Below are positions 1,783 through 63,122 of a stretch of 64,000 bases of DNA, piece by piece. The first letter of the stretch is position 1. The number at the start of each line of letters is the position of its first letter. Origin of the DNA: a phage. The position numbers and the translations under genes are program-made. Under the pieces are notes generated by a model that did not search any database, was not told the DNA's origin, and saw only the letters and a program-made list of their open reading frames with translations. Location of the stretch: assembly GCA_012690745.1 (NCBI GenBank), contig GCA_012690745.1_4086.1; one strand, written 5' to 3'.

Positions 1783-3890
<2,108 letters not shown>

Positions 3891-6553: not shown

Positions 6554-7534
6554 ATGGCTAAAAAAATTAATGAAGCACAAGTTAAAATCGATATCGCAGG
6601 TTTAGAATCTGATGATTTGGAAACTCTATCACGTATGTTAGCTCTTGCTGGTCAAGCTGAACGTCAAGACCCAGTAGTTGCCGCTCCAGTACCATCTATG
6701 GGGTCTATGACTCCATCTCTTCCACCTATTGCTCCACTAGATCTCGATTCTATTGGTGCTGAAGAAGAAATTGGTGGAATTGAAACTTCAGTTGAAGACC
6801 CACTAGCAGCGGCAGTTGATGATCTTTCCGCTGATGTTGGTGATTTTGGTGCTGACACAGATGAAGTTAGTATGGATGCTGAATTTTCAGAACCAGGTGT
6901 AGAAGGTGAAGAAGATTTTTCTCTTGACCTTAGTGGTCAACCTCAACTAGAATCAGTTGAAGAAGACGATGAGGAAGAAGAAGAAATTATTGAAGAAGAA
7001 TTCGATTTTAGTCGTATGCTATCTCTTGCTGGTATTAACGAAGAAGAAGACGAAGATTTTTCAGTAGAGGGTAATCCTGCTACCGATAAAGAAATGAAAG
7101 ATACCCAATTTCTACCAGATCTAAGTATCTCTGAAGATGAAGAACCATCTAACAGTACTGATTATGGTCCATATGATACAGAAGCTGATGCCGTTCGTGA
7201 TGGTCAACTAAAGACTAATGGTGTTGAAGGTGACCATTTTGTTGTAATTGCAAAAGGCAATCAATTTTATTGGAGACGTGTTGTAGATGAAGATCTTGAC
7301 AATCGTCCAGAACCTGAGTATTATGATAATGAAGGGAACGAAAATCGTGTTCATAAATTTGAACCAAAATTCCCAGGCACTGCATTAGGAGATAACCCAC
7401 TAAATGTTAATGAAAGTGAAGAAGATGATTCACCTGAAGGTAACATTGACTTGGAAGATGATTCTGATGAAGAAGTAGAAGATATTTTTGAAAGTCTCCA
7501 AGAAAAATACAAGAAATTTTTAGGAGACAAATAA
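6554..7534 (+). CDS. highly acidic protein (Asp/Glu-rich; candidate DNA-mimic or virion internal protein)
   Basis: 326-aa ORF with long D/E runs (EEDDEEEEEIIEEEFDF) and a duplicated motif SRMLALAGQAE / SRMLSLAGINEE. Confidence 0.55.
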   Translation: MAKKINEAQVKIDIAGLESDDLETLSRMLALAGQAERQDPVVAAPVPSMGSMTPSLPPIAPLDLDSIGAEEEIGGIETSVEDPLAAAVDDLSADVGDFGADTDEVSMDAEFSEPGVEGEEDFSLDLSGQPQLESVEEDDEEEEEIIEEEFDFSRMLSLAGINEEEDEDFSVEGNPATDKEMKDTQFLPDLSISEDEEPSNSTDYGPYDTEADAVRDGQLKTNGVEGDHFVVIAKGNQFYWRRVVDEDLDNRPEPEYYDNEGNENRVHKFEPKFPGTALGDNPLNVNESEEDDSPEGNIDLEDDSDEEVEDIFESLQEKYKKFLGDK

Positions 7535-7535
7535 T

Positions 7536-7931
7536 ATGCAATATAATTATCGTGAACTAGTTGAAGCGTTAGACGAAATTACCGGAAGAGATGAAGACGA
7601 AAGTTTTTCAGTTGAAGTTGAATCCGATGTTGTAGCAGTTGATGTTCTTAAGGATATTACCAAATGTCTTATTGATATTGTTGATAAGATTAAATCTGGT
7701 GAAGACCAAAAAGAAATTGTAGATAAACTACAAAAAGCCTGTGACATTTTGTCTGACATTCGATATAATGATGAAAGTACTGAAGTTGCTGATGAAGAAG
7801 TGTTGGAAGCCATTGCAGGTTGTTTTGGAACTGAAGGTATGGGACCAACAATTGACAAAGAAGGCGTACAACACTATAATGAGCCTGGTGCACCATCATA
7901 TGCTGCACGTCAAGGTTTTGTTGGAGACTAA
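7536..7931 (+). CDS. small acidic hypothetical protein
   Basis: 131-aa ORF, ATG 2 nt after the upstream stop; net strongly acidic. Confidence 0.5.
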   Translation: MQYNYRELVEALDEITGRDEDESFSVEVESDVVAVDVLKDITKCLIDIVDKIKSGEDQKEIVDKLQKACDILSDIRYNDESTEVADEEVLEAIAGCFGTEGMGPTIDKEGVQHYNEPGAPSYAARQGFVGD

Positions 7932-7934
7932 TAT

Positions 7935-8315
7935 ATGTTTCCAGAACCATCACATAACAGTACTGAATATCAAAATAATGTACTTTCCAAAGTTAGGGAA
8001 GTACATGAATCAGATTCAGAAATAACAGACCGTATGCTTCTGATGTCAATTTTTGAAAATTTCAGAACTGGCGGTGGTTTACGTCTTAGCAAGTTTGGGT
8101 ATGGAATTTGTAAAGAAAATAATCTTTATGAATTTACAAAAATCCCCTTGCAAAGAGAATTTAAAAGTTCTATAATGTTTACATCACTTGACAGAATATG
8201 TACTTCACCTTATTATGTTGAAGGTCAGTACATATATCTGACAGATGCAATGATAATAACTGAATTAACATTGTGTTGTGACGATTTTAAACAGTTATTT
8301 TCTATTCATATGTAA
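7935..8315 (+). CDS. hypothetical protein
   Basis: 126-aa ORF, last gene before the promoter-rich intergenic region. Confidence 0.4.
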   Translation: MFPEPSHNSTEYQNNVLSKVREVHESDSEITDRMLLMSIFENFRTGGGLRLSKFGYGICKENNLYEFTKIPLQREFKSSIMFTSLDRICTSPYYVEGQYIYLTDAMIITELTLCCDDFKQLFSIHM

Positions 8316-8339
8316 GAAAAAATGAATTAAAAATAAATG

Positions 8340-8367
8340 TTGACAAGATAGAATGATGTGATACAAT
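8340..8367 (+). promoter_or_regulatory. sigma70-like early promoter P1 (TTGACA - 16 nt - TACAAT with upstream TGTGA)
   Basis: ttgacaAGATAGAATGATGTGAtacaat; the same architecture recurs at four other sites. Confidence 0.6.
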
Positions 8368-8432
8368 AAGCATCAGACATAAAGTTTTCAAGCGACACAA
8401 GATGTGAGTTTGAAAAAAAAGAAAAAAAGTGA

Positions 8433-8460
8433 TTGACAAGTTGAAACGATGTGATATAAT
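8433..8460 (+). promoter_or_regulatory. sigma70-like early promoter P2 (TTGACA - 16 nt - TATAAT)
   Basis: ttgacaAGTTGAAACGATGTGAtataat, about 170 nt upstream of the AAA+ ATPase gene. Confidence 0.7.
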
Positions 8461-8521
8461 GTTCACATCAAGACAGCAAAGAGATTTACCTTTTAAACAC
8501 ACGGATGATTCATGAAGTAAC

Positions 8522-8562
8522 AAAGGAACTGATAAGTTAAATTATTTTAACACAGTTCCTTT
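8522..8562 (+). other. 5'-UTR hairpin (10-bp stem, 21-nt loop) between promoters and the AAA+ gene
   Basis: AAAGGAACTG (8522-8531) pairs with CAGTTCCTTT (8553-8562); followed by a T-rich stretch. Possible attenuator or processing site. Confidence 0.35.
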
Positions 8563-8629
8563 ACTTTTGCCCACGGATTGGCTATAATAGAAACTTAAAC
8601 GATTTTATCCAACAAAAGGAAATATATAC

Positions 8630-9955
8630 ATGACTACTCAAAACGATATCCTGAACGTTAAACTGACTCCAAAGAAAGCTAAAGAAGCAATGGCACTAGC
8701 TGACATGATTCAAGATAGCCTGATGATTTGGGGTAGCCCAGGTATCGGTAAGTCTGCAATCGCTCGTCAATACGCTGATGAAAATTACCCACTGCGTAAA
8801 GATAACGTAGCTAAAATCGAGTTCATGAAACAACAAATCGAAGCTGACCCTGAAAATGCTGATCAGCTACGCCGTGAACTGGCTGCATTTGAAGCAAAAC
8901 TAATCGACCAAGATACTAACTTTATCGATTTCCGTTTGTCTCAAATCGAACCAAGTGACCTTCGCGGTATTCCAGTACCAGAGAAGCTTTTCCGTAAAAC
9001 TGACGGTTCTCTTCTGAAAGAATCTGAGCTTGCCGAAGCAAAAGATTATGTAGCTGAAACTGCGGTAGTATGGGCTGCACCTAAAGTTCTGAAATTGTCC
9101 GAAGATTGGAAAGGTGTTATTCTGTTTGACGAAATTAACTCTGCAATGCCTATTGTTCAGGCAGCGTCTTATCAGCTAATCCTCGACCGTTGTGTTGGTG
9201 AGATGAAGCTACCTAAGACTGCACTGATTCTTGCAGCAGGTAACCGTGAAACTGATGGCGGTGTAACTTTCTCTCTTGCTACACCACTGCGTGACCGTAT
9301 GACTCACATTGAGATGATTCCTTATCATCAAGATTGGATTAACGATTATGCGATTGCAAAACGTTTGAACCCAGCAACTGTTGCGTTCATCAACAACACT
9401 GGTTCTAAGTACTTTAACACACTTAGTCCACAAGATCCTTCTCACAGTGGTGGTACTTCTCCACGTTCATGGGAAGCAGTAGCACGCTACGAAGATCTCA
9501 AGAAAACTAAGACAATTGATAAAGAAGTGTTCCGTGCAATGATTGCTGGTCGTGTTGGTGAAGGTGTTGCAACTGAATACATTGAGTACGTTGAGAACGT
9601 TGCTAAACTACCAGATACTATGTCTATTCTGTCTGGTGAAATCAAAGAAATCGACGCAACGCTGGATATTTCTGCGAACTACTTTATCACTCTGAACTTG
9701 GTTTATAAAATTATCGACCTGTTCAATGAGAAGCAAGAACAACGTCTACCAGTGGAAGAATGGGGTAAACTGTGTAACAACTTCATCACCTTCCTAGACC
9801 ATAACTTCTCTGCAACTCAAGCAGAACTGGCAGTACTGGCAATTCGTACCATCACGCTTCATAAGGTTGCGATTTCCATTAAAGATGTACCAGCGTTTAA
9901 AGATTTCATCGCTAAGTACTCTGAACTTGTACGTAAAGCACGCTCTCTTGGCTAA
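8630..9955 (+). CDS. AAA+ ATPase, MoxR/CobS-like (AAA_5-type)
   Basis: 441 aa. Walker A GSPGIGKS, Walker B VILFDEIN, downstream LILAAGNRE sensor-like segment. Strong RBS AAAGGAAA. Codon usage is GC-richer (CTG, CGT) than the structural genes. Confidence 0.8.
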   Translation: MTTQNDILNVKLTPKKAKEAMALADMIQDSLMIWGSPGIGKSAIARQYADENYPLRKDNVAKIEFMKQQIEADPENADQLRRELAAFEAKLIDQDTNFIDFRLSQIEPSDLRGIPVPEKLFRKTDGSLLKESELAEAKDYVAETAVVWAAPKVLKLSEDWKGVILFDEINSAMPIVQAASYQLILDRCVGEMKLPKTALILAAGNRETDGGVTFSLATPLRDRMTHIEMIPYHQDWINDYAIAKRLNPATVAFINNTGSKYFNTLSPQDPSHSGGTSPRSWEAVARYEDLKKTKTIDKEVFRAMIAGRVGEGVATEYIEYVENVAKLPDTMSILSGEIKEIDATLDISANYFITLNLVYKIIDLFNEKQEQRLPVEEWGKLCNNFITFLDHNFSATQAELAVLAIRTITLHKVAISIKDVPAFKDFIAKYSELVRKARSLG

Positions 9956-9976
9956 TTAACAAAGAGTTGTTGACAA

Positions 9977-10008
9977 GAAGGATGCCTAATGGTATCCTTC
10001 TTTTATCT
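9977..10008 (+). terminator. intrinsic terminator after the AAA+ ATPase gene
   Basis: GAAGGATGCC...GGTATCCTTC stem (one G-U) followed by TTTTATCTT. Confidence 0.55.
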
Positions 10009-10029
10009 TAACTAAACGAGGAAATATAC

Positions 10030-11454
10030 ATGTCAGATAACAAATCTACTTCCAGATTCAATGAAGTATCTCCGGCACTCCAGAAAGAATGTCAAGAACG
10101 TCTGGTTCTGGCTCGTACATCTTTGATGTTAACTGCACCATTCTTTGGTGTACTCGCTTCACGTTTACGTCCAGTTCCTAATAATACATGGTGTCGTACT
10201 CTAGCAGTGGATGGTAAACATCTATTCTACAACGTAGAATTTGTAATGGGCATTCAAGACCCATCTAAAAAGAAAGAATATGAAGAAGCTATTCGTGAAA
10301 AGCACCCTGAAGTTACAGACGAACAATTAAAAGAAATGACTGAAGGTTTGACTGATGAAAACCTTGTTGCTGTAATTTGTCATGAAATTCTACACTGTGC
10401 TTACGATCACTTCCTTCGTCGTGGTATGCGTGATCCACAACGTTATAACCGTGCAGCGGATTATGCCATTAACCAAATCATCGTTCGTGAGAAAATTGGG
10501 AAAATCCAAAGTTCATGGTTGTATGATAAAAAATATGAAGGCATGACCGCAGAAGAGATTTACATTCTTCTTGAAGAAGAAGAACAAAAAGAAGATGGTG
10601 AAGGTGAAGGTCAACCACAAAGTGGTGGCGGTGAAGGTGAAGGTAAAAATCGCGGTACTTTTGGCGATATTAAAGATGGTAAGGGTAAACCAAAAGGTAC
10701 TACCATTGACCAGCATGACGTTCCACAAGAAGGTCAAGAAGGTGGTTCAAGTGAACAGCAAAAACGTGATTATATGGATGATTTCAAAACAGCAATGATG
10801 AATGCTGCACGTGCAGGTGGTACACCAGCAGAAATCGCTCGTATGATTAACAACTTTAAAGAACCAAAGATTGACTGGCGTTCAAAACTTCAACGTACAC
10901 TTCGTAGTTGGTTGAAGTCTGATGCAACATATCAAAATCCGAATCGTCGTTCTTGGGGTGCAGGTTTTGGTTCTAATGGTTCATTCTATGGTAATCCAAT
11001 TTACCCAGGGATGAAACCAGATGATGACATTGATATTGCGATTGCACTAGATGCTTCTGGATCTATTTCTGAAGATATGCTTCGTGATTTCATTAGTGAA
11101 GTTCTAGGTATCACTAAACAATTCAAACAGTTTAAGATTCGTATCATGACTTTTGATACTGAAGTTTATACTGTAAAGGATTACAAAACTGGCGAAGAAC
11201 GTAAGATTCTGGAATATCCAGTAAAAGGTGGTGGTGGTACTGACTTTGAAGCAGTATGGGTTCATATGAAGAACGACAACTACAAGCCTAAACAGCTTGT
11301 AATGTTTACAGATGGTGAACCGTGGCAGTCGTGGGGTGATCCAAACTACTGTAAAACACTGTTCGTGATTCACAGTAACCCAAATAAAGTTGCACCATTT
11401 GGTGAGACTGTACACTACGAATATGAAGCTGATAAAAAGCGTCAACGTAGTTAA
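10030..11454 (+). CDS. VWA-domain protein with N-terminal HExxH putative metallopeptidase domain (DUF2201-like, CobT/ViaA-like partner of the AAA+ ATPase)
   Basis: 474 aa. HEILH zinc-binding motif in the N-terminal domain; E/G-rich disordered linker; C-terminal MIDAS-like DASGS motif (IAIALDASGSIS) typical of von Willebrand A domains. Confidence 0.7.
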   Translation: MSDNKSTSRFNEVSPALQKECQERLVLARTSLMLTAPFFGVLASRLRPVPNNTWCRTLAVDGKHLFYNVEFVMGIQDPSKKKEYEEAIREKHPEVTDEQLKEMTEGLTDENLVAVICHEILHCAYDHFLRRGMRDPQRYNRAADYAINQIIVREKIGKIQSSWLYDKKYEGMTAEEIYILLEEEEQKEDGEGEGQPQSGGGEGEGKNRGTFGDIKDGKGKPKGTTIDQHDVPQEGQEGGSSEQQKRDYMDDFKTAMMNAARAGGTPAEIARMINNFKEPKIDWRSKLQRTLRSWLKSDATYQNPNRRSWGAGFGSNGSFYGNPIYPGMKPDDDIDIAIALDASGSISEDMLRDFISEVLGITKQFKQFKIRIMTFDTEVYTVKDYKTGEERKILEYPVKGGGGTDFEAVWVHMKNDNYKPKQLVMFTDGEPWQSWGDPNYCKTLFVIHSNPNKVAPFGETVHYEYEADKKRQRS

Positions 11455-11466
11455 GTACTAAATAAT

Positions 11467-11497
11467 GAGAACGGAATTTTCCGTTCTCTTCTTTTAT
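11467..11497 (+). terminator. intrinsic terminator
   Basis: GAGAACGG-aatttt-CCGTTCTC followed by TTCTTTTAT. Confidence 0.65.
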
Positions 11498-11501
11498 AAG
11501 T

Positions 11502-11529
11502 GGGACAACTTATAAAAATATGATATAAT
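11502..11529 (+). promoter_or_regulatory. sigma70-like early promoter (GGGACA - 16 nt - TATAAT)
   Basis: gggacaACTTATAAAAATATGAtataat; same spacing and ATGATATAAT -10 context as P2. Confidence 0.5.
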
Positions 11530-11563
11530 AGTTAATGTACCAATATACATGGAGAGTATTAAA

Positions 11564-11809
11564 ATGGAACAAGAAAATAATCAAATTCAACTAACCCTTC
11601 TAGACCTAATCAATGCTGCAAAAATTATGGAAGCTGCTGTTGCACGAAACACCTTTAAAGTTGAAGAACTTGTTGAGGTTGCTCCAGTTGTATCTAAATT
11701 TGTTTCTTTTGCAAATGTAGCTCTTGAAGATATTAAAGCACAAGAAGATGCAGCTAAAGAAGAAGCTGAATCACAAGATAGTGAAACTCAAGAAGATAAA
11801 GGAGAATAA
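11564..11809 (+). CDS. small acidic hypothetical protein
   Basis: ORF track starts at 11549, but ATG 11564 is preceded by GGAGAG. Product is E/D-rich (EDAAKEEAESQDSETQEDKGE). Confidence 0.45.
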   Translation: MEQENNQIQLTLLDLINAAKIMEAAVARNTFKVEELVEVAPVVSKFVSFANVALEDIKAQEDAAKEEAESQDSETQEDKGE

Positions 11810-11811
11810 TT

Positions 11812-12468
11812 ATGGCAGCTATTCGTCATGTTGGTGTAATGCGTAATACAGGTTCTCGTGTTTTTGTTGTTTGGCGTTCACTACCAGATGATCCTGAACA
11901 CTGCCTTATTGTTTATCGTGATTCACTACCAGAAGCATATGTTCACGCAGTAACTGATATTGTTATGGGTCATGGTCAATCTAATATTGATTTGTGGGAA
12001 GTAATGCATAAAATTGGTTATCTCGATGGACGCAAAATGCTAGATGTTCTACACAATATGCAGCATCTCCGTCGCGTTCGTACTTGTGACATTGATATGC
12101 ACACTGGTGGTAATAATAAAATTTCTCTTGATGTTCTAAACAAAGCATTAGATGAAAATCAAGCAAAAGTACAAGAAGATGGTAAAGTAAAAGACTTTAA
12201 CCCATTCAATCCACAAGAAGCGGACACTAAAGTAGAAGAAGCTACTATTGTAGAACAACTTCTCACTGATGCACAAAAATATGAAAAACTGGCTAAAGAA
12301 CATTATGAACGTGCATATAATTTAGAGCCAAGTTTGCGTCCACAAACACAAGTTGTTGAACAACCGAAAGATAGTAAAACAATTTATCTAGAAATTCCAG
12401 AAGGTATTTCACAGACTAAAGCTATTGAGAAAGTAAAACAACTATTTGCAGAACGTAAAGCAAAATAA
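11812..12468 (+). CDS. hypothetical protein
   Basis: 218-aa ORF; RBS GGAGAA; starts 3 nt after the previous stop. Confidence 0.5.
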   Translation: MAAIRHVGVMRNTGSRVFVVWRSLPDDPEHCLIVYRDSLPEAYVHAVTDIVMGHGQSNIDLWEVMHKIGYLDGRKMLDVLHNMQHLRRVRTCDIDMHTGGNNKISLDVLNKALDENQAKVQEDGKVKDFNPFNPQEADTKVEEATIVEQLLTDAQKYEKLAKEHYERAYNLEPSLRPQTQVVEQPKDSKTIYLEIPEGISQTKAIEKVKQLFAERKAK

Positions 12469-12471
12469 AAT

Positions 12472-13065
12472 ATGAAAAAGAATGAATTAGATGAAGCAAT
12501 AAAAGGTTTATCTAATGTATGTTTTAGTGGCGGGGCAGCAGGTGCTGACCGCCTTTTTTCTATCTATGCAAAAAATAATGGATTTGAAGTTATTAATTTT
12601 TCATTCAAAGGTCATGAGCATAGTGTAGATGAAAGTACTATATTAGAAATACCATCCAATATTCTATCTGATATTTCTATATTAAATCAACTAAACATTG
12701 CATGTTACTCGTTACAGCGAAAAGTACCGAAGCCTGGTTCTTATGTTTACAACTTACTTGCAAGGAATAGTTATCAGATACTTAATACAGAAAGAATATA
12801 TTGTATTGCAAATATCACATCACCAACTAAGGTAAGTGGTGGTACTGCATGGGCAGTACAGATGTATATGGATTCAGTTGAAAATCCTGAAATTTATTGT
12901 TATGATATGAATTCACGTTCAGTATTTTATTTTGATACAGTACTGAAAGAGTTCACACAAACATTCGTCGTTCCAGCACCACATGGTAACTGGACTGGTA
13001 TTGGTTCACGCAATGCCACCGAAAAACATATGGAACATTTTATTACATTTTTCAAGGAAGAATAA
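12472..13065 (+). CDS. Rossmann-like protein with glycine-rich FSGGAAGAD loop (SLOG/DprA/LOG-like; putative nucleotide-processing enzyme)
   Basis: 197-aa ORF; stop overlaps the thymidylate synthase start (ATGA at 13062-13065), implying co-expression. Fold assignment is inferred from the G-rich loop only. Confidence 0.4.
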   Translation: MKKNELDEAIKGLSNVCFSGGAAGADRLFSIYAKNNGFEVINFSFKGHEHSVDESTILEIPSNILSDISILNQLNIACYSLQRKVPKPGSYVYNLLARNSYQILNTERIYCIANITSPTKVSGGTAWAVQMYMDSVENPEIYCYDMNSRSVFYFDTVLKEFTQTFVVPAPHGNWTGIGSRNATEKHMEHFITFFKEE

Positions 13066-13994
13066 TGAAACAACTACAAGAACTATATCAAAAAATTCTA
13101 GATGAAGGCGTAGAAAGCGTTGACCGTACTGGTGTTGGGACAATCAAACTTATCGGTCAACAAATGCGTTTCGACCTTAACGATGGTTTCCCAGCAGTGA
13201 CGACAAAACGTCTAGCTTGGAAAGCAATGACTTCAGAATTACTATGGTTTATTGAAGGTTCCCATGATGAGCGTCGCCTTTGTGAAATTTTGCATGGAAC
13301 TCGTGATACCGAAAAGAAAACAATTTGGACAGATAATTACCTAAATCAAGGCGTTGCTCTTGGTTATACTGGTGGTGAATTGGGTCCAGTGTATGGTAAG
13401 CAATGGCGTGAATGGGAAGATTATAAATTTAGTTCCAGTACTGAAGAAATTCAAGAATTAAAAGATAAAGGATACAAAGTTATCGATTATACTGGTTCAC
13501 ATGGTGTTGTTATGAAACGTACAACTGACCAATTACAAGAACTAATCAAAGGTATAAAGTCCGATCCATATGGTCGTCGCCACATTCTAAGTGCATGGAA
13601 CGTTGGTGAGCTTGATGATATGACGTTGCCACCTTGTCATAGCTTTGTGCAATTTTGTGTAGTACAAGGGAAACTAAGCTGCATTCTACATCAACGCTCC
13701 GCTGATCTATTTTTAGGAGTTCCATTTAATATCAGTAGTTACTCACTACTAACTCATATGATTGCACAAATTACTGGTTTAGATGTTGGTGAATTTATTT
13801 GGAATGGTGGTGATTGTCACATTTATAAAAACCACGTTGAACAAGTAAAAGAACAACTACAGCGAAAACCTCGTGAATTACCTGAATTGTGGCTTGATCC
13901 TACAATTACTAATATTGAAGATTTCACAATGGATTCTTTCAAATTAGTGAATTACAACCCAATGCCAACAATTAAAGCACCGATGGCTGTATAA
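13065..13994 (+). CDS. thyA: thymidylate synthase (ThyA-type, T4 td-like), intronless
   Basis: 309 aa. Canonical motifs: FPAVTTKRLAWK, RRHILSAWN, active-site LPPCHSFVQF, QRSADLFLGVPFNISSYSLL, GGDCHIYKNH. Confidence 0.95.
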   Translation: MKQLQELYQKILDEGVESVDRTGVGTIKLIGQQMRFDLNDGFPAVTTKRLAWKAMTSELLWFIEGSHDERRLCEILHGTRDTEKKTIWTDNYLNQGVALGYTGGELGPVYGKQWREWEDYKFSSSTEEIQELKDKGYKVIDYTGSHGVVMKRTTDQLQELIKGIKSDPYGRRHILSAWNVGELDDMTLPPCHSFVQFCVVQGKLSCILHQRSADLFLGVPFNISSYSLLTHMIAQITGLDVGEFIWNGGDCHIYKNHVEQVKEQLQRKPRELPELWLDPTITNIEDFTMDSFKLVNYNPMPTIKAPMAV

Positions 13995-32462: not shown

Positions 32463-32504
32463 GATTGTCTCCAAAATAAATCGGGTATATCTTTATTTAC
32501 CTTG

Positions 32505-32532
32505 TAGACAAACCGTAAGAATGTGATATAAT
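32505..32532 (+). promoter_or_regulatory. sigma70-like early promoter upstream of the ClpA-like gene (TAGACA - 16 nt - TATAAT)
   Basis: tagacaAACCGTAAGAATGTGAtataat; same ATGTGATATAAT context as the other early promoters. Confidence 0.6.
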
Positions 32533-32572: not shown

Positions 32573-34861
32573 ATGAATCTTACTCAATTGTTCAAAAAAA
32601 GCGACGAACTGGCAACATCTCTAGGTCATACATTCTTGACTATTGACCACGTAAGTGCCACAGTACTGACTATTGATAGCATCAAGAACGTATTTGAAGA
32701 TATGAACATTGATGCAGACAAACTGCACAACCGCCTGATGAACTATCTTAAAAATACAACAGTTCCACATGCACCAAAAAGTGTTAAAGATGAAGACGCG
32801 AATCGAACTTCACTTCTAGTGAATCGCGTTGTACATGAGCTTTCTAAAAAATCAGTTATTGAACAACTAAAAAGTGATGATTTTTCGATTGATGCATATT
32901 TTGTTCTATTCGAATGTCTGTCTTTCCCTAACACAGCACTAGAAGCTGCGTTAAAAGAAGAAGGTGTTAGCTGTACTGAAGCTGCACGTGCATTACAGAA
33001 ACACGTTGAGTCACTTGATAAGGGTATCAACTTACAAAGTATTAATGACGAACCGATTGGAGATAAAAAAGTGGCCCAACAGCAGCAATCATCTAAACAA
33101 AAAGGTTTGGAAGACTATACAACGAATCTAACTGCTCTTGCAAAAGAAGGCAAACTAGATCCTATGATTGGTCGCCAGAAAGAATTGTCTGCATTGATTG
33201 AGACTCTTGCTCGCAAAACCAAAAAGAATGCTATTCTCACTGGTGAAGCTGGTGTAGGTAAAACACAAATCATCGACGGACTTGCACAAGCTATTGCTGA
33301 TGGTAACGTACCTGAACACCTGAAAGACGTTGAAATTCTTTCACTAAATGTTGGTGCATTGACTGCTGGTACTAAGTATCGTGGTGAATTTGAAGAACGC
33401 ATCGACAATTTGCTAAAAGAACTAAAGAAACGTGAAAATACTATTGTTTTCATTGATGAAATTCATATTATGGTTGGGGCTGGTTCCGCAAGTAATGGTT
33501 CTATGGACATGAGCAATATGCTTAAGCCAGCACTTTCACGTGGTGAGATTCGTGTAATTGGTGCAACAACATATGATGAATATCGTAAAAATATCGAGAA
33601 AGATAGTGCATTAACTCGTCGTTTTATGAAAATTGACGTAGTTGAGCCGACAATTGATGAAACTCGTGCAATTGTTAATGGTTTGAAACCAACGTATGAA
33701 AAATTCCATAATGTTGAGTTCACATCTGATGCAATGGATGCTGTAATTTCTCTCAGTGATAAATTCCTGAAGAATAAGCACTTCCCAGATAAAGCAATTG
33801 ATCTAATGGATGCTGCTGCGGCTAAAGTTCGTTCACGTGACAACAATAGTAAGCTAATTACTGCCAATTTGATTCAAGAAGTTGTTGCTGGTATTGCCAA
33901 TTTGGATATCAACGTGGTTGCATGTACTGAAAGTGATCGTATGCGTAATCTACCAGATGCACTACGCTCACGTGTATACGGTCAAGAGGAAGCTATTCAA
34001 AAATTAGTTGATAACGTGATGGTAGCTCGTGCAGGACTGCGTGACAAATCTAGTGTTCAGGGTGCATTTATGTTTGTTGGACCATCTGGTACTGGTAAAA
34101 CAGAAATTACCAAAGCATTAGCAGACGCAACTGGTGCGGAACTCATTCGCTTTGATATGTCAGAATTTTCTCAAGAACATACTGTTTCTAAACTAATTGG
34201 TTCACCTCCAGGTTATGTTGGTCATGATTCTGGTAACGGTTTACTGTTGGATAAAATTGAGCAGTTCCCTAATGCAGTACTGTTACTTGATGAAATTGAA
34301 AAAGCAGATCGTAAAGTACTACTAACCTTCCTACAGGTTTTGGATGAAGGTCGTCTGACTGGTTCTCAAGGTAAAACTGTATATTTTAATAACGTAACTG
34401 TTATTATGACTACAAACCTTGGTGCGGCTGATTCAACAAAGCGTAGCATTGGTATGAGCGGTAGTGACACTGCACAGGACAAGGCAATTAAAGCATTCTT
34501 GCCACCAGAGTTTATTAACCGTATTGATAGTATCGTTACGTTTAAAGACCTAAGCAGTGAAGCTATTGACAGCATCATTGATAAGTTCATGGGTGGTTTG
34601 AATGAACAAGTCAAAGACCGTAATGTTAAAGTTACATTGACAAAAGCTGCACGTGAATGGCTTGCGAAAAATGGGGTAAAAGTTGGTATGGGTGCACGTC
34701 CAATGAAACGTACCATTGAACAAAACATTCGTGTACCACTAGCTAAAGAAATGTTGTGTGGTTCACTTGTGAATGGTGGTAACATTACATTTGATGTTAT
34801 TGATGGTAAAATCGGTATTAAGCCGAAACGTACCAAAGCTGTAGATAAAGCACTAGTATAA
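32573..34861 (+). CDS. ClpA/Hsp100-family AAA+ unfoldase (two nucleotide-binding domains, no ClpB-type middle domain)
   Basis: D1 Walker A GEAGVGKT and Walker B IVFIDEIH; D2 Walker A GPSGTGKT and Walker [10 protein letters not shown]; N-terminal Clp_N-like region. ORF track begins at a GTG (32552); ATG 32573 has RBS AGGAGA. Host-like codon usage. Confidence 0.85.
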
Positions 34862-48410: not shown

Positions 48411-48475
48411 AATTTATTCCTTTAAATCAGTAAAGTACTAGTTCAGTACTGGGAATTATATATAGAAATATTTAT

Positions 48476-48507
48476 TCAAAAAGAAAAGCACTCCGAAGAG
48501 TGCTTTT
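48476..48507 (-). terminator. intrinsic terminator (minus strand) after the gp25-like gene
   Basis: AAAGCACTC-ttcg-GAGTGCTTT followed by a T-run on the minus strand. Confidence 0.55.
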
Positions 48508-48511
48508 GTAA

Positions 48512-49411: not shown

Positions 49412-49447
49412 AAAGATATCCTCGTTTTATTTATAGTACTAAAATAT

Positions 49448-54700: not shown

Positions 54701-55521
54701 TAAATGAATCCTCCTTTACGTAATAGTTCACCACGTTTGAATGCATTGAGGTTGAACGTTTTAGTCATATAATCCGATGTTGGTTGTTCTTCAAGTTGTA
54801 ACATAACTGAGATTTTTTGTGGAACCCAAACTTCATCTTGTGGGTTCATATATCCAGTACTTCTAAGTTGTTCGAAGAATTTTCTACTATCCATGTCGGA
54901 TAAATTAAAAGTACTATCGCTACTATTCAACGGAACTTGAATATAAGAAACATCATTTGGGTAAGTAAAATTATAAGATTTTAAAATAACAGGAATATCA
55001 TTATATGTATAACGACCATATCCACTTAGAAGTAAGATTGGTGGTGGTGCACCTGCAATTGCGAGTTCGGGGTTATTAGCCGAAGCAGCTTGTCTACCAA
55101 AATCCATCAACGAAACAGAACGTATAAAATGAACACATGCCAACGCATACATAGCTTCTGCTGCTGTATTCGCATAAAATTCACCCTGAATCGTGAAAAC
55201 TGTATTAGTAGTGTTCTTATAGTTGTTATAGTTACTGTTAGTATGTATAGGGGACTGTGTTTCATACTGAATTGACCTTTGTTCAGTAATTGTTGGTGTT
55301 ACAGTCCAAACCAACCCATTAGTTGGACGCAGAAACGAAAGTAGAGTTGGTTCGGAGCTATCTCCAAAATCACCATATACATAGTTAGCACCTGCGGCTT
55401 TAGGTCGTAATCGAATTCTACGATCAATCATCTTTTTGATTCTCCATAATAAGGGAACATTTGATGTATTTATACGTGGGACAAACTGCTTTTTGGTGCT
55501 ATAATAACATTGATGGTACAA
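54700..55521 (-). CDS. hypothetical baseplate/tail-associated protein (first gene of the minus-strand baseplate operon)
   Basis: ORF track begins at a TTG (55521); an in-frame ATG at 55431 is preceded by GGAGA and may be the real start (about 243 aa). Confidence 0.45.
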   Translation of the reverse strand: MYHQCYYSTKKQFVPRINTSNVPLLWRIKKMIDRRIRLRPKAAGANYVYGDFGDSSEPTLLSFLRPTNGLVWTVTPTITEQRSIQYETQSPIHTNSNYNNYKNTTNTVFTIQGEFYANTAAEAMYALACVHFIRSVSLMDFGRQAASANNPELAIAGAPPPILLLSGYGRYTYNDIPVILKSYNFTYPNDVSYIQVPLNSSDSTFNLSDMDSRKFFEQLRSTGYMNPQDEVWVPQKISVMLQLEEQPTSDYMTKTFNLNAFKRGELLRKGGFI

Positions 55522-55562
55522 GGATTGTACCTATTGGATTTAAACATGGAGAGTAAAATACA

Positions 55563-56402
55563 ATGACAAATAGACCAAAGCGTAAAAAGTATCTCAATAA
55601 TGCTGATTTACTTCGTGAAATACAAAAAAGTAAAATTTCATATTGCTGGTTATTAGACAAATCATATAGTATGTATGATTATATTGTTTTTCATGAGTCA
55701 GGAATTACTGCTGAGTTACTAGAAAAAGCTAAGGCAGCACGAATTAAACGACTGAACAATGAAATGCTTGATAGTATTCGTGAAAAGGAAAATATGAGTG
55801 CTAAAAAAGCTAAAGAATATGCAGATGAACACAATTTAGTTATCACTGACGTTCCAATTGATGAAGTTGTTATTCGTGTTATTACAGATGAACATATTCC
55901 ACCAGATACTAGAGTTAACTTTGAACCATTCAAGCATTATATTGTAGATAATGAAGGTATTCTCTATGAAGTTTGTCGTTCTCACTGGAAAGGCGACCTT
56001 GAAACTGGTGAATTCAGTACTGTTCATGGTAAAATTACAAATGAACTTGGGAAGATGTTCATTAAACTTGCAGAGGAAATCTCACACAAATCTAATTACA
56101 GAAACTATACATACTTAGATGAAATGATGGGTGATGCAAGAATACAATTAGTTAAAAACGCACTTCTCTTTAAAGAGAGCATTCTTTATAAAAAAGATAA
56201 ACCAGCAGTTCAGCTAAATCCTTTCTCTTACTATACATCATTCGTAAACAATAGTTTTCGTTCTATATTGAATAGTGAGAAAAATGTTCGAAATATACGT
56301 GATGATTTACTTGAAATGCATGGCTTTACGCCATCACATACACGTCAAATTGAAATTGAATTGAACATGATTGAAAGGAAAAATGAAGATGGCTCTGTTT
56401 GA
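55563..56402 (+). CDS. late-transcription sigma factor, T4 gp55-like (with internal insertion)
   Basis: 279 aa; N-terminal KKYLNNADLLREIQKSK and C-terminal NPFSYYTSFVNNSFRSILNSEKN resemble gp55 segments as recalled from memory; sits directly upstream of gp47/gp46 as in T4. RBS GGAGAG. Confidence 0.5.
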   Translation: MTNRPKRKKYLNNADLLREIQKSKISYCWLLDKSYSMYDYIVFHESGITAELLEKAKAARIKRLNNEMLDSIREKENMSAKKAKEYADEHNLVITDVPIDEVVIRVITDEHIPPDTRVNFEPFKHYIVDNEGILYEVCRSHWKGDLETGEFSTVHGKITNELGKMFIKLAEEISHKSNYRNYTYLDEMMGDARIQLVKNALLFKESILYKKDKPAVQLNPFSYYTSFVNNSFRSILNSEKNVRNIRDDLLEMHGFTPSHTRQIEIELNMIERKNEDGSV

Positions 56403-57420
56403 TAAAGCAATTACATTCACTGATATTCATTTAGGTTTAAAGAATAACAGCAAGCAACACAATGAAGATTGTTTAAACTTCATTAAATTCATGATTGAGG
56501 TAGCTAAAAAAAATAATATCAAAGTTTGTGTTTTTATGGGAGATTATTTTCATAATAGAAGTAATATCAATATCCAAACACTAAACTATGGTTTACAAAT
56601 TCTTCAATTATTAAATGATAATTTTGAAAAAGTATATTTTTTAGTAGGCAACCATGATATGTATCATAAAAACAAACGTGATATAACAAGTATCAATATG
56701 GCTCAAGTTTATGAAAATATAGAATTCATTAATGAAATTACAACATTTGATGATTGTACTTTCATTCCATTTATGATTGAAGATGAATATAAGTTGTTAC
56801 CTCAACTAAAAAGTAAGTATGTTTTTGGTCACTTAGAGTTACCAGGTTACTTGCTTAACAAGATGGTAGAAATGCCTGATCATGGTAAAGAAACAGAAGG
56901 TTCTTTTGGTGGTTGTGAGTATGTTTTTAGTGGACATTTTCATAAAAGGCAGTCAAAAACAACTTCAAAAGGAACTCGTGTAGTTTATACTGGTAATTGT
57001 TTTCCACATAATTTTTCCGATACATGGGATGATGCAAGAGGTGTGATGATTCTTGAACATGGAAAAGAACCTATTTTCAAGTCATGGGATAATGCACCAA
57101 AATATAGAACATTCACACTTTCTGAATTGTTGACTGATCCAAGCTATTATCTACAAGATAACACAATATCAAAAGTTCAAGTTGATATATCAATAACAAC
57201 AGATGAGATTAGTTTTATTCGTGATACATTTACTAAACTTTACAACATTAGAGAGTTTAATGTTGTAACGAGCAAGCAAAGTATCGCAGAATTAATTGAA
57301 GATGGTGTTAGTTTTGAAAGTACTGAATCAGTTGATGAGATTGTGTTGCAGCAAATTATGGAAATTGACTCACCCATGTTTGATAAAAATCTTCTAATCC
57401 AAATTTACAGATCGTTATAA
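56389..57420 (+). CDS. recombination/repair nuclease subunit, T4 gp47-like (Mre11/SbcD phosphoesterase)
   Basis: Calcineurin-like motifs TDIHLG, GDYFH, GNHDMYH, GHLELPGY, SGHFH. ORF track starts at 56371, but ATG 56389 follows AAAGGAAAAATG. Confidence 0.85.
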   Translation: MALFDKAITFTDIHLGLKNNSKQHNEDCLNFIKFMIEVAKKNNIKVCVFMGDYFHNRSNINIQTLNYGLQILQLLNDNFEKVYFLVGNHDMYHKNKRDITSINMAQVYENIEFINEITTFDDCTFIPFMIEDEYKLLPQLKSKYVFGHLELPGYLLNKMVEMPDHGKETEGSFGGCEYVFSGHFHKRQSKTTSKGTRVVYTGNCFPHNFSDTWDDARGVMILEHGKEPIFKSWDNAPKYRTFTLSELLTDPSYYLQDNTISKVQVDISITTDEISFIRDTFTKLYNIREFNVVTSKQSIAELIEDGVSFESTESVDEIVLQQIMEIDSPMFDKNLLIQIYRSL

Positions 57421-57428
57421 GGGACTAT

Positions 57429-59576
57429 ATGCTAAACATTACACGTATATCTATGAGGAACTTCTTTTCATTTGGTAATGCACCACAATCAATTGAATTG
57501 AATGGTTCTGACATTTCATTAGTACTGGGTCAAAATAATGATGCAGTTATTGAAGGTGGTGACAGCACCGGACGTCGAAATGGTGTCGGGAAAAGTGCTA
57601 TTATTCAAGGATTAGTTTTTGGATTATTTGGGAAAAGTATTGGTAATGATATTAAAATTCCTAACTTAGTCAATAAAACTAATGGTAAAAATTGTGAAGT
57701 AGTTGTAGAATTTGAAAAAGATGGTGTACAATATCTTGTTGAGCGTGGGAGAAGTCCCACGTATTTCAATTTTGTTACTTTAGGCAAAGATAATAAAATT
57801 GAAGATGAATCAAGGGGAGAAAAGAAAGACACACAAGAAGATTTGAATGAAATTCTTGGTATATCTCAATTATTATTTGAACATATTGTAGTACTGAATG
57901 CTAACGTTGAACCTTTCTTAGCTTTATCCACACAAAAACAACGTGATATGATAGAAGAACTTCTTGGAATAACACAGTTGACGGAAAAAGCTGAAATGCT
58001 AAAGGAGATGTATAAGGATACTAAACGTTTAGCCGAACAAGAAAAGTTCAAAAATGAAACTGTAGCTGCAAGTAATGAACGTATTCAAAAAAGTATTGAG
58101 ACACTACAAGAACAGGCAAACCAGTTTGAAATTGATAAAAATAATAGAGTATCTAAGTTAAATGAAGAGTTGAATATATATAAAACTTTAGACTTTAATG
58201 ACCTCTATGAAGCTGCTGATATAAAAGAGAAAGCTCTTATTCATAACGCAAAGCGTGGGGAAATCGAACGCCGTGTACAAGAGTTGGCGTTAAAATTTGA
58301 TGCATATGACCGTGAACTTGAAAGATCTAAAAGAGCATTAAATCTAAGCATTGATAAGCTAAAAACTATTGATATTAGTGCAGAATTGGAAAATCATAAT
58401 GAGTTGGAGATATGGAAACAGTTAGAGGGTATTCTAAAAGAGAATAATAACCAAAAACGTTTCAAAGAACAAAAACTAAACTCACTAAAAATAGCTTTAA
58501 AAGGATATGAATGTTCAATTAATGCTGAAATTGACAAATTATCAACAGTTGAAAACAGCAAATGTCCACTTTGTATGTCTGAATTAGAACATAACGAACA
58601 TACTTCTTCAATTAAAGACAAAATCCAAAGTACTATTAATGATCTTCAAGCTAAAATTGATAGTTCTTCTTCTGAAATTGAAACATTACTTCAAGAAATT
58701 GATAGTATTGAGATTTTTGATATGCCACCTAAGCCTGTGACATATTATAATACACTTTCAGAAGCACAAATGCATGAACATAAGCTTCAAGAATTGGTCA
58801 GAAAGAGTGAAGAAGAACAAATAAACATCTATGCAAATGAACTTATGTCATCATATGATGAACTTAACTCATATGAACTAATGGAAGTTCCAGATACATT
58901 AAACAAATATGAAGTTAAAGAGTTAGAAATGACTGTAAATTCATTATCACAGCAATTAGATCGTGAATTGAAGACTACTAACACATTTATTAGCCAAATT
59001 AATACCCTGAAGACTGATTCTTTAGTACCAATTGATTATAGCGACTATAATAATCTTGATAAAATGTCAAATCACCAAGATTTCTTGGTTAAATTACTTT
59101 TAAACAAGGATTCTTATGTCCGTAAACGTATTATTGAGCAAAATATATCATATTTGAATACACGACTTCAGTACTATATCGATATGTGCGGTTCTGAGCA
59201 TAATGTTGTGTTTTTGAATGATTTGAGTGTTGAAATTGAGAAGAGTGGACAGTACTTTGACTATAAACAGCTTAGTAGAGGTGAGCGTACAAGGGTAAAC
59301 ATCGCATTATCTTGTGCTTTCCGTGATACATATGAGTCATTATACCAAAGTATTAATATTCTTATCATTGATGAGATGATTGACCAAGGTCTTGACTCAA
59401 GTGGTGTTCTACGTGTGTGGTCTATCTTCCAAGATATGGCTGCTGTACGTGGTAAGAACGTTTATGCTATTTCCCACAGAGAAGAGTTACTATCTAAGAC
59501 TGAAAAAATCCTCAAAGTTGTTAAAGAGGACGGTTTCAGTACTGTTGAATATGCAACCCTTGATGATGTTTTCTAA
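57429..59576 (+). CDS. recombination/repair ATPase subunit, T4 gp46-like (Rad50/SbcC)
   Basis: 715 aa. Walker A RRNGVGKSA, long coiled-coil with CPLC zinc hook, signature LSRGERTRV, Walker B ILIIDE, C-terminal SH motif. Confidence 0.9.
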   Translation: MLNITRISMRNFFSFGNAPQSIELNGSDISLVLGQNNDAVIEGGDSTGRRNGVGKSAIIQGLVFGLFGKSIGNDIKIPNLVNKTNGKNCEVVVEFEKDGVQYLVERGRSPTYFNFVTLGKDNKIEDESRGEKKDTQEDLNEILGISQLLFEHIVVLNANVEPFLALSTQKQRDMIEELLGITQLTEKAEMLKEMYKDTKRLAEQEKFKNETVAASNERIQKSIETLQEQANQFEIDKNNRVSKLNEELNIYKTLDFNDLYEAADIKEKALIHNAKRGEIERRVQELALKFDAYDRELERSKRALNLSIDKLKTIDISAELENHNELEIWKQLEGILKENNNQKRFKEQKLNSLKIALKGYECSINAEIDKLSTVENSKCPLCMSELEHNEHTSSIKDKIQSTINDLQAKIDSSSSEIETLLQEIDSIEIFDMPPKPVTYYNTLSEAQMHEHKLQELVRKSEEEQINIYANELMSSYDELNSYELMEVPDTLNKYEVKELEMTVNSLSQQLDRELKTTNTFISQINTLKTDSLVPIDYSDYNNLDKMSNHQDFLVKLLLNKDSYVRKRIIEQNISYLNTRLQYYIDMCGSEHNVVFLNDLSVEIEKSGQYFDYKQLSRGERTRVNIALSCAFRDTYESLYQSINILIIDEMIDQGLDSSGVLRVWSIFQDMAAVRGKNVYAISHREELLSKTEKILKVVKEDGFSTVEYATLDDVF

Positions 59577-60086: not shown

Positions 60087-60146
60087 AGCTGTTTGTCCTG
60101 TTTTGTTAAATAAAGTATATTAAAAAGTTTTGTGAGGTACAATAGA

Positions 60147-61094: not shown

Positions 61095-61200
61095 AATATG
61101 ATATAGTTTTTTTAGAACCAAGTAATAAAAATGTTACTTGGGTTTTTATATGTGTAAAAGTTGGAACTAAGTACTTAATGAATATTTTTATAAAAATAGT

Positions 61201-61228
61201 GAGACAACTTTAAAGTTTGTGCTATAAT
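61201..61228 (+). promoter_or_regulatory. sigma70-like promoter (GAGACA - 16 nt - TATAAT) preceding the ORF-free region
   Basis: gagacaACTTTAAAGTTTGTGCtataat. Confidence 0.45.
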
Positions 61229-61234
61229 GTTTGT

Positions 61235-61665
61235 TGTAGTAATGACAATCCTGTTGAATGCAGAAATGCATATAAATTAGAACCTGATCCTATCGAAAAT
61301 GTAGATGGCAGATGAGCAGTTCAACAGTGCGATGAGCAAAAGAAACCCGTTAGATGTGGGCATAGTTTGAACCCCTCACGGCAATGCGGCTCAATAAAGA
61401 ACTCCGATAAGCATACAGAGAGTTCCTAGATAGACATATAAGGATCGCACCTTACCAGATTTGCTAAGGGAGTTTATTAAGTGATTTTAATAAACAGCCT
61501 GAAGTTTGATTGTATAGACTTTCAGGTGAGTGTCAGGATGATTAAGACTGACGACCGTTGCACATGACTGCGATAGAGAGAAACAGAGCAACCCGCTTTC
61601 GTTCTTAATATATTTTTAAGAAATTCGCAATACAATAAATGCTGAAACCATCAGCGTCAAGAAAT
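61235..61665 (+). ncRNA. candidate structured non-coding RNA locus (no ORF; flanked by promoter and terminator)
   Basis: About 430 nt without ORFs in a tightly packed genome; locally higher GC; internal hairpin CCTGAAGT...ACTTTCAGG (61497-61527); repeated GATGAGCA. No tRNA cloverleaf recognised by eye. Confidence 0.3.
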
Positions 61666-61690
61666 AGAGACTTCATTGTCTCTTTTTTAT
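61666..61690 (+). terminator. intrinsic terminator closing the ORF-free region
   Basis: AGAGAC-ttcatt-GTCTCT followed by TTTTTTAT. Confidence 0.7.
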
Positions 61691-61902
61691 TGTCTTCATT
61701 CCCCTGCGGGGGGATGAAAATGTCCTCAACAAATCCCGTCAAGTATTAAATCTTTTAAAGTTCTTTATAATTAATTTAATTAAATGAATATGAGTTACGT
61801 AGTAACGAATATTCTTCAGCTAACGAATGAAATGAGTTAGATGAATCCAATAATATTAAAATTAATCCTTTCATAATTCAATTCAAATAATTCTGTAGTT
61901 TA

Positions 61903-61936
61903 AAACCAAAAAAAAAACCAGCAACAATGTGCTGGC
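61903..61936 (-). terminator. intrinsic terminator (minus strand) after ORF 61947-62156
   Basis: Minus-strand CCAGCA-cattgt-TGCTGG followed by TTTTTTTTTTGG. Confidence 0.6.
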
Positions 61937-61946
61937 TATATGAAAA

Positions 61947-62992: not shown

Positions 62993-63122
62993 TTTATTAA
63001 ATCTCCATGTAATAAATGTGTTTTAGTATTTATAAGACCAAAAAAGATTAAATTAAACTAATTTTTATATTCTCTATAGTTTCATAAATATTTCTATAAT
63101 ACATCTATTAAAAGGGAATGTT

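Follow-up and report, generated by a model that had tools for sequence, protein, structure and literature searches.

Two promoter-like sequences stand in tandem upstream of an AAA+ gene at positions 8340–8460 of the phage DNA analyzed here, a stretch of 64,000 nucleotides referred to below as the window. What class of promoter do they belong to, and which protein would read it? An earlier note, made from the sequence alone, had pooled them with three further sites into one family, defined by a TTGACA-like -35 hexamer, a constant 16-nt spacer and a shared -10 element, and had taken this family for the early regulon of the phage. Window bases 7000–13000 are 99.2–99.5% identical to vB_EcoM_E9.1, G17, Sharanji, 121Q, PBECO4 and phAPEC6, which are jumbo Asteriusvirus phages of Escherichia (~350 kb), indicating an Asteriusvirus origin. 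As these nearest relatives infect E. coli, the suggested gammaproteobacterial sigma70-type host fits. Mapping of the 121Q RefSeq annotation onto the window showed that virion gene blocks, many of them on the - strand, alternate with + strand non-structural blocks (Table 1). No tRNA genes were found within the window.

Direct reading located all five sites at the positions given in the earlier note, each with a 16-nt spacer and with TG at -15/-14 followed by TATAAT or TACAAT. The stretches containing the -10 element are ATGTGATACAAT in S1, ATGTGATATAAT in both S2 and S4, ATATGATATAAT in S3 and TTGTGCTATAAT in S5. The family is real but was incomplete, because a sixth site (S6, 55478–55505) had been missed. 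Over all six sites, TG is present in 6/6 and the -10 hexamer is TATAAT in five and TACAAT in one. The description of the -35 hexamer as TTGACA-like held exactly for two of the five original sites, S1 and S2, whereas the other three keep only GACA; with S6 included, the four remaining hexamers are GGGACA, TAGACA, GGGACA and GAGACA, each a 4/6 match. Six exact + strand matches to GACA-N13-TGN-TANAAT, and no - strand ones, were counted in the window, whereas 100 dinucleotide-preserving shuffles gave an expectation of 0.13 and never as many as six; the sites are thus a non-random, strand-consistent promoter family. All six are intergenic and face + strand genes or the ORF-free locus. Their intergenic position, shared orientation with the feature behind them and conservation in orthologous slots speak against chance matches or coding-sequence artefacts, both of which were rejected. 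The genes behind the sites had also been called GC-richer, which is true at 8–11 kb (0.38–0.41) and 32–35 kb (0.38) but not at 55–57 kb (0.32).

Table 1. Promoter sites, neighbouring elements and target genes in the window, ordered by position.
Feature	Position	Strand	Basis and context
S1, upstream tandem member: UP-like A-tract, TTGACA, 16 nt, TG-extended TACAAT	8340..8367	+	Direct read; 11/12 consensus plus TG
S2, downstream tandem member: A-tract, TTGACA, 16 nt, TGTGATATAAT	8433..8460	+	12/12 sigma70 consensus plus TG
Terminator-like hairpin AAAGGAACUG...CAGUUCCUUU (8522-8562) with ACUUUUG U-tract	8522..8569	+	G17 terminator annotation; between S2 and start codon 8630
Weaker promoter TTTACT-17-TATAAT, overlapping the hairpin	8560-8588	+	Consensus scan
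MoxR-like AAA+ ATPase and DUF2201 metallopeptidase/VWA-like protein	8630-11454	+	121Q annotation
S3: class-typical TGGGACAA-N15-TATAAT; GGGACA-16-TATAAT at 11502-11529	11501..11529	+	24.2 bits
Two unknown genes, DprA-like, ThyA (gp565-568 operon)	11564-13994	+	121Q annotation
S4: GTAGACAA-N15-TATAAT; TAGACA-16-TATAAT at 32505-32532	32504..32532	+	18.1 bits; before ClpA-like AAA+ gene, ATG 32573
ClpA-like ATPase	32573-34861	+	121Q annotation
Late motif TATAAATA serving divergent structural operon	55467..55474	-	Abuts -35-like element of S6
S6: TGGGACAA-N15-TATAAT; GGGACA-16-TATAAT at 55478-55505	55477..55505	+	24.6 bits; before gp55-like sigma gene (55563), then SbcCD-like genes
T4 gp55-like late sigma factor and SbcCD-like genes	55563-59576	+	121Q annotation
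S5: TGAGACAA-N15-TATAAT; GAGACA-16-TATAAT at 61201-61228	61200..61228	+	34.3 bits; drives ORF-free locus
ORF-free stretch	61229-61946	+ strand block	121Q annotation
Structured non-coding RNA candidate, ~520 nt, target of S5	61235..61750	+	ORF-free, covariation

For motif scans, the complete 121Q genome was assembled from nine annotated pieces. The strict pattern nG[GA][GA]AC-N14-TGnTA[TC]AAT matched 17 times where 0.2 matches were expected, each time on the + strand. A weight matrix derived from these 17 matches then scored 35 sites above 12 bits, every one of them on the + strand (null, 3.1 for the two strands together), and 31 sites above 16 bits (null, 0.45); the genome-wide motif search proposed in the earlier note thus recovers the family well beyond the window. 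The class consensus is aaaa..TGgGACAAa..(A/T-rich)..gTGaTATAAT. The -35 elements of S3–S6 match its octamer, TG(G/A)GACAA, and are better taken for class-specific elements than for drifted TTGACA boxes. The fixed spacer holds genome-wide, because the distance from hexamer to -10 is almost constant in 121Q (17 in 18 cases, 18 in three, 15 in one, and never 13, 14, 16, 19 or 20). The window itself was scored with a weight matrix built solely from 121Q sites outside the window region, for which a window should yield ~1 match above 12 bits. S5, S6, S3 and S4 were recovered at 18–34 bits (Table 1). S1 and S2 reached just 10.5 and 11.1 bits, respectively, which is noise level, because the -35 of the pair is TTGACA and not TGGGAC. 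The single pooled family therefore mixed two sub-types, a sigma70-consensus tandem pair and the class-typical sites. One further match, with its -10 at 2712 (16.9 bits, intragenic), is probably spurious. Maximal-order-Markov 8-mer enrichment on 121Q was uninformative for further promoter classes.

The genes behind the class promoters of 121Q form a recognizable set. Replication targets comprise SSB (a tandem pair at 5211 and 5286), primase, an exonuclease, topoisomerase II and the DNA polymerase block; a class site also lies inside the RNase H gene, ~340 nt upstream of a Dda-like helicase gene, and another at the genome end faces the RNase H-like 5'-3' exonuclease gene (gene 1). Further targets are a DNA methyltransferase, tRNA-Ser/Leu, a ClpP-like protein, a nudix protein, the ThyA operon, the ClpA-like ATPase and the late sigma gene, and four paralogous ORF-free loci sit behind class promoters. 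Several class promoters follow terminators; S3 comes immediately after one at 11467–11488. In T4, the delayed-early and middle genes make up the prereplicative set, with replication, recombination, nucleotide and late-sigma genes; by this analogy, the class gene set is a prereplicative one of the T4 delayed-early/middle kind.

A second uniform architecture emerged from a scan of 121Q for TTGAC-type promoters: an A-tract, TTGACA, N9, AGTACTG, TATAAT and ..ttACATC. It has 22 + strand matches above 14 bits, 18 of them at 135.8–154.3 kb, where almost each tiny ORF of unknown function has its own copy, and no match above 14 bits within the window. S1 and S2 have only the A-tract, TTGACA and the 16-nt spacer in common with it. 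The TG(G/A)GACAA class is thus not the immediate-early promoter class, and the reading of the family as the early regulon did not survive: a separate sigma70-consensus class lies elsewhere, and the present one precedes replication, recombination, nucleotide-metabolism, protease and late-sigma genes. It is better read as a prereplicative, middle-type regulon, although the class may still be called early in the broad, prereplicative sense. The late class is distinct as well. The exact T4-type late motif TATAAATA occurs three times in the window, always on the - strand and just upstream of structural operons, and at the late-sigma slot the order of TATTTATA followed by the class element is found in nearly all relatives. 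Upstream of the - strand RCC1-like gene array, where a fourth motif for the phage sigma was sought, only a terminator followed by TATTAAATA/TATAAT was found.

A literature search turned up neither a study of Asteriusvirus promoters nor mapped transcripts or start sites from this phage group. The papers on RaK2, phAPEC6, Sharanji, fEgEco12 and EJP2 are without promoter analysis, and in the RNA-seq study of PA5oct the motifs given are just the generic TTGAC/TATAATA, alongside four ncRNAs. For Pectobacterium phage CBB, three promoter classes were predicted by MEME (Buttimer et al. 2017, PMC5259590, Table S6). One comprises 18 RpoD-like promoters with UP-like elements in the region of short hypothetical genes and was proposed to be early; the second, 'Promoter 1', comprises 18 'divergent RpoD-like' promoters, TGAAACG/TGGAACG...(T/A)(G/A)TG(G/A/C)TATAAT, which precede DNA-synthesis genes and a gp55-like gene; and the third consists of ATAAATA late promoters (PMC5259590). 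According to the account that the CBB paper gives of Abbasifar et al. (2014), the second and third classes are also found in Cronobacter phage GAP32 (PMC5259590).

The CBB/GAP32 'Promoter 1' sites, which are MEME predictions only, share with the present class TGrrAC, 17 nt and TATAAT with a preceding TG, as well as the DNA-synthesis and gp55-like gene set; there too, the early promoters (UP plus TTGACA) and the late ones (ATAAATA) form classes of their own. The slots are orthologous: Porf_218 corresponds to S3 and Porf_244 to S6. The two differ in the upstream element, which is TG(A/G)AACG there and TG(G/A)GACAA here, where GACA is still sigma70-like. S3, S5 and S6 match the 'Promoter 1' layout exactly and S4 nearly so, while S1 and S2 fail at the upstream element. 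Judged by sequence, the class is the Asteriusvirus counterpart of the divergent RpoD-like class of CBB and GAP32 and was in that sense already predicted in sister phages.

Comparison of orthologous slots separated a constant from a variable part of the promoter. TGnTATAAT is invariant across lineages, whereas the -35-like element is lineage-specific and uniform within each genome: TGGGACAA in Asteriusvirus, TTGAAC/TAAA in RaK2-like, TGGGACAAA in Munch-like and TG(G/A)AACG in CBB/GAP32-like phages. The orthologues of S3 carry CGGGACAG in BF17, TGGGACAA in A4, TTGAACAAA in KP13-7, TTGGGACAAA in PHA46 and TGAAACG in CBB (the Porf_218 site); read at greater length, the elements before the gp565 homologue are, in series, TGGGACAAC, CGGGACAGC, TGGGACAAC, TTGAACAAA, TTGGGACAAA and TGAAACG. 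The late-sigma slot (S6) is kept in 18/19 related contigs with lineage-typical -35 elements, the promoter before the ORF-free locus (S5) is kept in 13 related contigs, and Munch has TGGGACAAA at both the late-sigma and the ORF-free slot. Such uniformity of promoters within a genome could also stem from promoter cassettes spread by recombination.

The two promoters before the AAA+ gene do stand in tandem, 93 bp apart. At this slot, the window, BF17 and A4 have two tandem copies of A-tract/TTGACA/16/TGTGATATAAT, and the RaK2-like KP13-7 has one. The Munch-like PHA46 has TTGGGACAAA-..-TGTGATATAAT, and CBB has TGAAACG-..-TGTGGTATAAT, read as TGAAACGTCTAAAAAAATTGTGGTATAAT, which overlaps the preceding stop codon. 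The TTGACA state of S1/S2 is conserved over 13–19% DNA divergence within the genus (window, BF17, A4). From this pattern, the most fitting account of S1/S2 is duplication of a class slot and a change of its -35 to consensus TTGACA, and the lineage switching at the AAA+ slot argues that TTGACA and the class octamer are functionally interchangeable.

Between this pair and the gene lies a terminator-like hairpin (Table 1). The AAA+ leader has a fold z-score of -3.1, and the hairpin stem is kept via compensatory changes in KP13-7, PHA46 and CBB; these changes were taken from the raw sequences, as MAFFT misaligned the 5' arm of the hairpin in distant lineages. Its CBB counterpart is the published terminator Torf215 (PMC5259590). 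Since a promoter lies 5' of the hairpin in every lineage, the AAA+ mRNA must read through it, or, in Asteriusvirus, would start at the weaker TTTACT-17-TATAAT promoter that overlaps it. With this hairpin in front of the gene, S1/S2 could mainly yield a short leader RNA.

S5 has no protein gene behind it. The locus holds no ORF of at least 60 aa and has conserved counterparts that occupy the corresponding slot in CBB, GAP32, a Yersinia phage and uncultivated relatives. Three paralogues in 121Q, with ~70% identity over ~500 nt, are likewise ORF-free and lie each directly behind a class promoter; up to four copies occur per jumbo-phage genome. RNAalifold analysis of a 16-sequence alignment predicted 94 pairs, 54 of them with compensatory changes; 96.2% of cells could pair, compared with 39–47% when the partners were slid, and 0/500 shuffles reached the observed scores. 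Being ORF-free and supported by covariation, the locus marks S5 as the promoter of a structured RNA gene and not of a missed protein gene. Rfam 15 holds no family for this RNA: the whole window searched at gathering thresholds and 61150–62000 searched at E <= 10 gave only chance or terminator-like hits. Copies of the RNA were confirmed 26 times in viral contigs and four times in bacterial chromosomes; bacterial genomes gave 86 matches to a 17-base RNA pattern, ~69 being expected by chance, and only these four were confirmed by nhmmer. In the two flanks examined, the chromosomal copies in Citrobacter and Serratia adjoin serine recombinase, ParB-like or CI-like genes, and TGAAAC-17-TATA(A/C)T precedes the RNA in these prophage-like chromosomal islands.

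We consider it somewhat better than an even bet that the six sites belong to one genome-wide promoter class of ~35 members per genome, with host-type recognition of the -10 and a phage-specific reader of the octamer. Promoter activity, timing and the octamer-reading protein are what we infer for this class. It would be defined by an invariant TGnTATAAT and an octamer, TG(G/A)GACAA, fixed 15 nt upstream. It would head prereplicative genes for replication, recombination, nucleotide metabolism, proteases/chaperones, tRNAs, the gp55-like sigma and structured RNAs, and would be separate from both the immediate-early promoters of the tiny ORFs and the TATAAATA late promoters. Host RNA polymerase would start 6–8 nt downstream of the -10 via sigma70-type extended -10 recognition, and the lineage-specific octamer would serve as a handle for a phage-encoded factor, much as T4 middle promoters have a MotA box in place of the -35. 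With its consensus TTGACA and UP-like A-tract, the S1/S2 pair should also fire with unmodified host sigma70 holoenzyme. As GACA (4/6 of TTGACA) is kept at a 16-nt spacer, sigma70 may also recognize the octamer weakly as a -35. Several points weigh against this reading. Host holoenzyme would be expected to use a perfect extended -10 from the first minute on, and it is architecture and gene content alone that suggest a timing different from that of the early class. The apparent interchangeability of TTGACA and octamer at the AAA+ slot, the possible spread of promoter cassettes and the hairpin behind S1/S2 count against it as well.

Known systems resemble this arrangement in part. T4 middle promoters (MotA/AsiA) likewise combine a host-type -10, often TG-extended, with a phage-specific element that replaces the -35, and they serve replication, recombination, nucleotide and late-sigma genes; T4-like core genes are present here. 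The MotA box of T4 is (a/t)(a/t)(a/t)TGCTT(t/c)A centred at -30. The upstream element found here, TG(G/A)GACAA, is not such a box; moreover, these phages, unlike T4, encode a complete sigma70-family protein. A tblastn search of 121Q with T4 AsiA yielded no convincing homologue (best E, 0.055). Extended -10 (TGn) promoters of E. coli share TG at -15/-14, TATAAT and a weak or dispensable -35 with the class, but they lack a conserved non-consensus octamer at a fixed distance.

The leading candidate for the octamer reader would be region 4 of the phage sigma70-family protein. In 121Q, this protein is gp167, which has the Pfam sigma70 regions 2, 3 and 4 and matches RpoD/SigA chains in the PDB. Its gene lies in the early region, outside the window and downstream of TTGACA-type promoters, and a class promoter follows its stop codon. 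When 14 sigmas of four clades were compared, each type of -35-like element was paired with its own putative region-4 recognition helix: GGGACA with (S/A)R(S/T)S(I/L)HR in Asteriusvirus and the Munch clade, G(G/A)AAC(G/A) with SKATLSR, and TGAA(C/T) with VRGTLHY. The two clades that share both helix and element are not sisters, the Munch sigma being closer overall to the CBB clade (44%) than to Asteriusvirus (35% identity). An insertion precedes the recognition helix in region 4 of the phage sigma. The hosts are all Enterobacterales and cannot account for lineage differences in the octamer or the helix.

These observations also bear on a stronger proposal, for which we see perhaps one chance in three or slightly less: the gp167 homologue would replace host sigma70 altogether, its region 4 reading TG(G/A)GACAA and its region 2 TATAAT, in a cascade from host sigma70 through the phage sigma to the gp55-like late sigma. 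The presence of sigma70 regions 2, 3 and 4, the position of the gene behind early TTGACA-type promoters, the co-change of helix and element, a lineage specificity that host sigma70 cannot explain and the presence of the late sigma gene in the class all accord with it. W433/W434, Q437, T440, H455 and E458 of sigma70 serve -10 and TG recognition. In the alignment to RpoD, equivalents of W433/W434, H455 and E458 are missing from the phage sigma in 4/4 clades, and those of Q437 and T440 in the 121Q-like and RaK2 clades, which argues against its reading TGnTATAAT in the manner of sigma70. The -10 is, moreover, the exact host optimum and invariant, while region 2.4/3.0 varies (IYM vs IRQ); helix and element changed together just twice independently, on long branches; in Citrobacter and Serratia the RNA has TGAAAC-17-TATA(A/C)T in front of it, and the 8 kb examined showed no such sigma; and the AAA+ slot tolerates TTGACA.

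Precedents for phage sigmas at middle genes exist. SPO1 gp28 is a phage sigma for middle genes, and in SPO1, phiEco32 (gp36) and 7-11 (gp47) a phage sigma70-family protein redirects the host core to later genes; their -10 elements are clearly unlike TATAAT, whereas the one here is the host consensus. The promoter of the Salmonella phage 7-11 gp47 sigma is bipartite with a 16-nt spacer (PMC8948821). A related and equally tentative idea is that the octamer is the cognate -35 of a phage sigma co-evolved with it in at least two lineages, forming the middle tier of a three-sigma cascade, with the promoter type also acting as a dedicated driver of the RNA.

Sigma70 extended -10 promoters need no good -35. 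Least probable, and in our judgement unlikely, is a single early regulon of ordinary host sigma70 promoters that takes in the TTGACA-type ones and has GGGACA, GAGACA and TAGACA as imperfect -35 boxes: the 11–12/12 consensus, TG and UP-like A-tracts of S1/S2, the GACA and 16-nt spacer of all sites, an extended -10 that makes -35 quality unimportant and the like promoter type in prophage-like contexts are in keeping with it, but ~30 unlinked promoters repeat T at -36, G at -35 and AA at -30/-29 where imperfect boxes should differ, CBB-type phages have TGAAACG (a 2/6 match to TTGACA) at the same slots, a distinct early architecture occupies other genome regions, and the gene content is T4-like middle/delayed-early and not that of host takeover.

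Jumbo phages of the Asteriusvirus and RaK2-like groups are phage-therapy candidates, yet we found no experimental work on their transcription programme. The map of three classes (early, TG(G/A)GACAA and late TATAAATA) yields testable predictions on timing and on the role of the RpoD-like sigma, a protein that marks this jumbo-phage group. The class promoters are compact, strong and host-compatible candidates for engineering, and S5 points to a large structured RNA family missed by annotation pipelines and Rfam. A variable -35-like element joined to an invariant -10 provides a natural experiment on how phages re-target the host polymerase.

Compensatory changes were found in 54 of the 94 pairs of the approximately 520-nt structured RNA, providing strong covariation support. 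Four copies of the RNA are present in the reference phage genome 121Q, and the RNA is kept throughout the RaK2/GAP32/121Q group; it was also detected in the chromosomes of Citrobacter and Serratia, adjoining serine-recombinase, ParB-like or CI-like genes. Comparison with Rfam 15 matched the RNA to no family. The locus borders one side of an HNH-type homing endonuclease insertion, the other side of which is occupied by the endonuclease VII gene. This endonuclease is absent from 121Q, and Salmonella phage Munch has a similar-sized ORF in the same slot. The reverse case was also observed: 121Q carries an HNH gene between its baseplate wedge and gp25-like genes, which is not present in the window near 48411-48511.

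Features located in the window and in annotated pieces of 121Q (L005-L008, coordinates local to each piece)
Feature	Location	Details
Structured RNA locus	window 61235-61750	ORF-free, covariation
RNA paralogues in 121Q	L005 40331-40727; L007 42836-43316; L008 47505-48063	
Homing endonuclease, HNH-type	window 60132-61094	free-standing; PHROG 559/9084; treble-clef zinc finger
Terminator-like hairpin	window 8522-8569	3' of tandem promoters, 5' of AAA+ start codon
Hairpin GGUACA-AGGAU-UGUACC	window 55515-55531	5' leader of gp55-like late sigma gene
T4-type late promoter motif TATAAATA, exact	window 55467-55474, 49428-49435, 63027-63034	- strand
Match to class matrix	window 2689-2717	CGAGCA-17-TATAAT with TG, 16.9 bits; within tail-tube gene
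Repeated terminator-hairpin/promoter cassettes	L006 (121Q 100001-150000), e.g. 9279-9320, 10561-10602, 12729-12770; also L005 48698-48740	
Sigma70-family factor gp167 (121Q)	L005 39267-40232	homologues L157-L168

The hairpin ahead of the AAA+ gene occupies the same position, with compensatory stem changes, in every lineage examined; its possible roles are to attenuate transcription, to mark where a leader RNA ends or to stabilise the mRNA. Further downstream, Pfam assigned the product of the 10030-11454 gene as a DUF2201_N putative metallopeptidase and VWA-like protein. This product forms a MoxR-AAA+/VWA pair with the ATPase encoded just before it. 121Q-like records label the gene 'HNH endonuclease / Zn-dependent hydrolase', and on these grounds the HNH annotation looks wrong.

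In relatives, the stem in the late sigma leader shows compensatory changes (AAAAC..GUUUU, GGGAC..GUCC) while the GGAU-containing loop is retained; regulation or processing may take place at this hairpin. Each TATAAATA motif lies immediately upstream of a - strand structural operon. The motif at 55467-55474, next to the late sigma gene, directly touches the -35-like element of S6 on the + strand, placing late and middle-type promoters back to back, and this pair is kept in relatives. The match to the weight matrix of middle-type promoters within the tail-tube gene is probably a chance hit.

In the cassettes of 121Q, the hairpin consists of GGGTTGACTTCGGTCAGCCC followed by a T-run, and the terminator also serves as a promoter, with TTGACT located within the hairpin stem and TATAAT 3' of the T-run. 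The same GGGTTGACTTCGGTCAGCCC hairpin is identical to the published terminators Torf515, Torf518 and Torf520 of Pectobacterium phage CBB. AGTACTG immediately 5' of the -10 element is a conserved feature common to the early promoters.

The phage sigma70-family factor has Ser, Thr or Ala at the positions of the near-invariant W433/W434 of sigma70, and an insertion of 9-11 residues (GF.D..GK) immediately precedes its putative region-4 recognition helix. gp167 and its homologues represent an unusual sigma.
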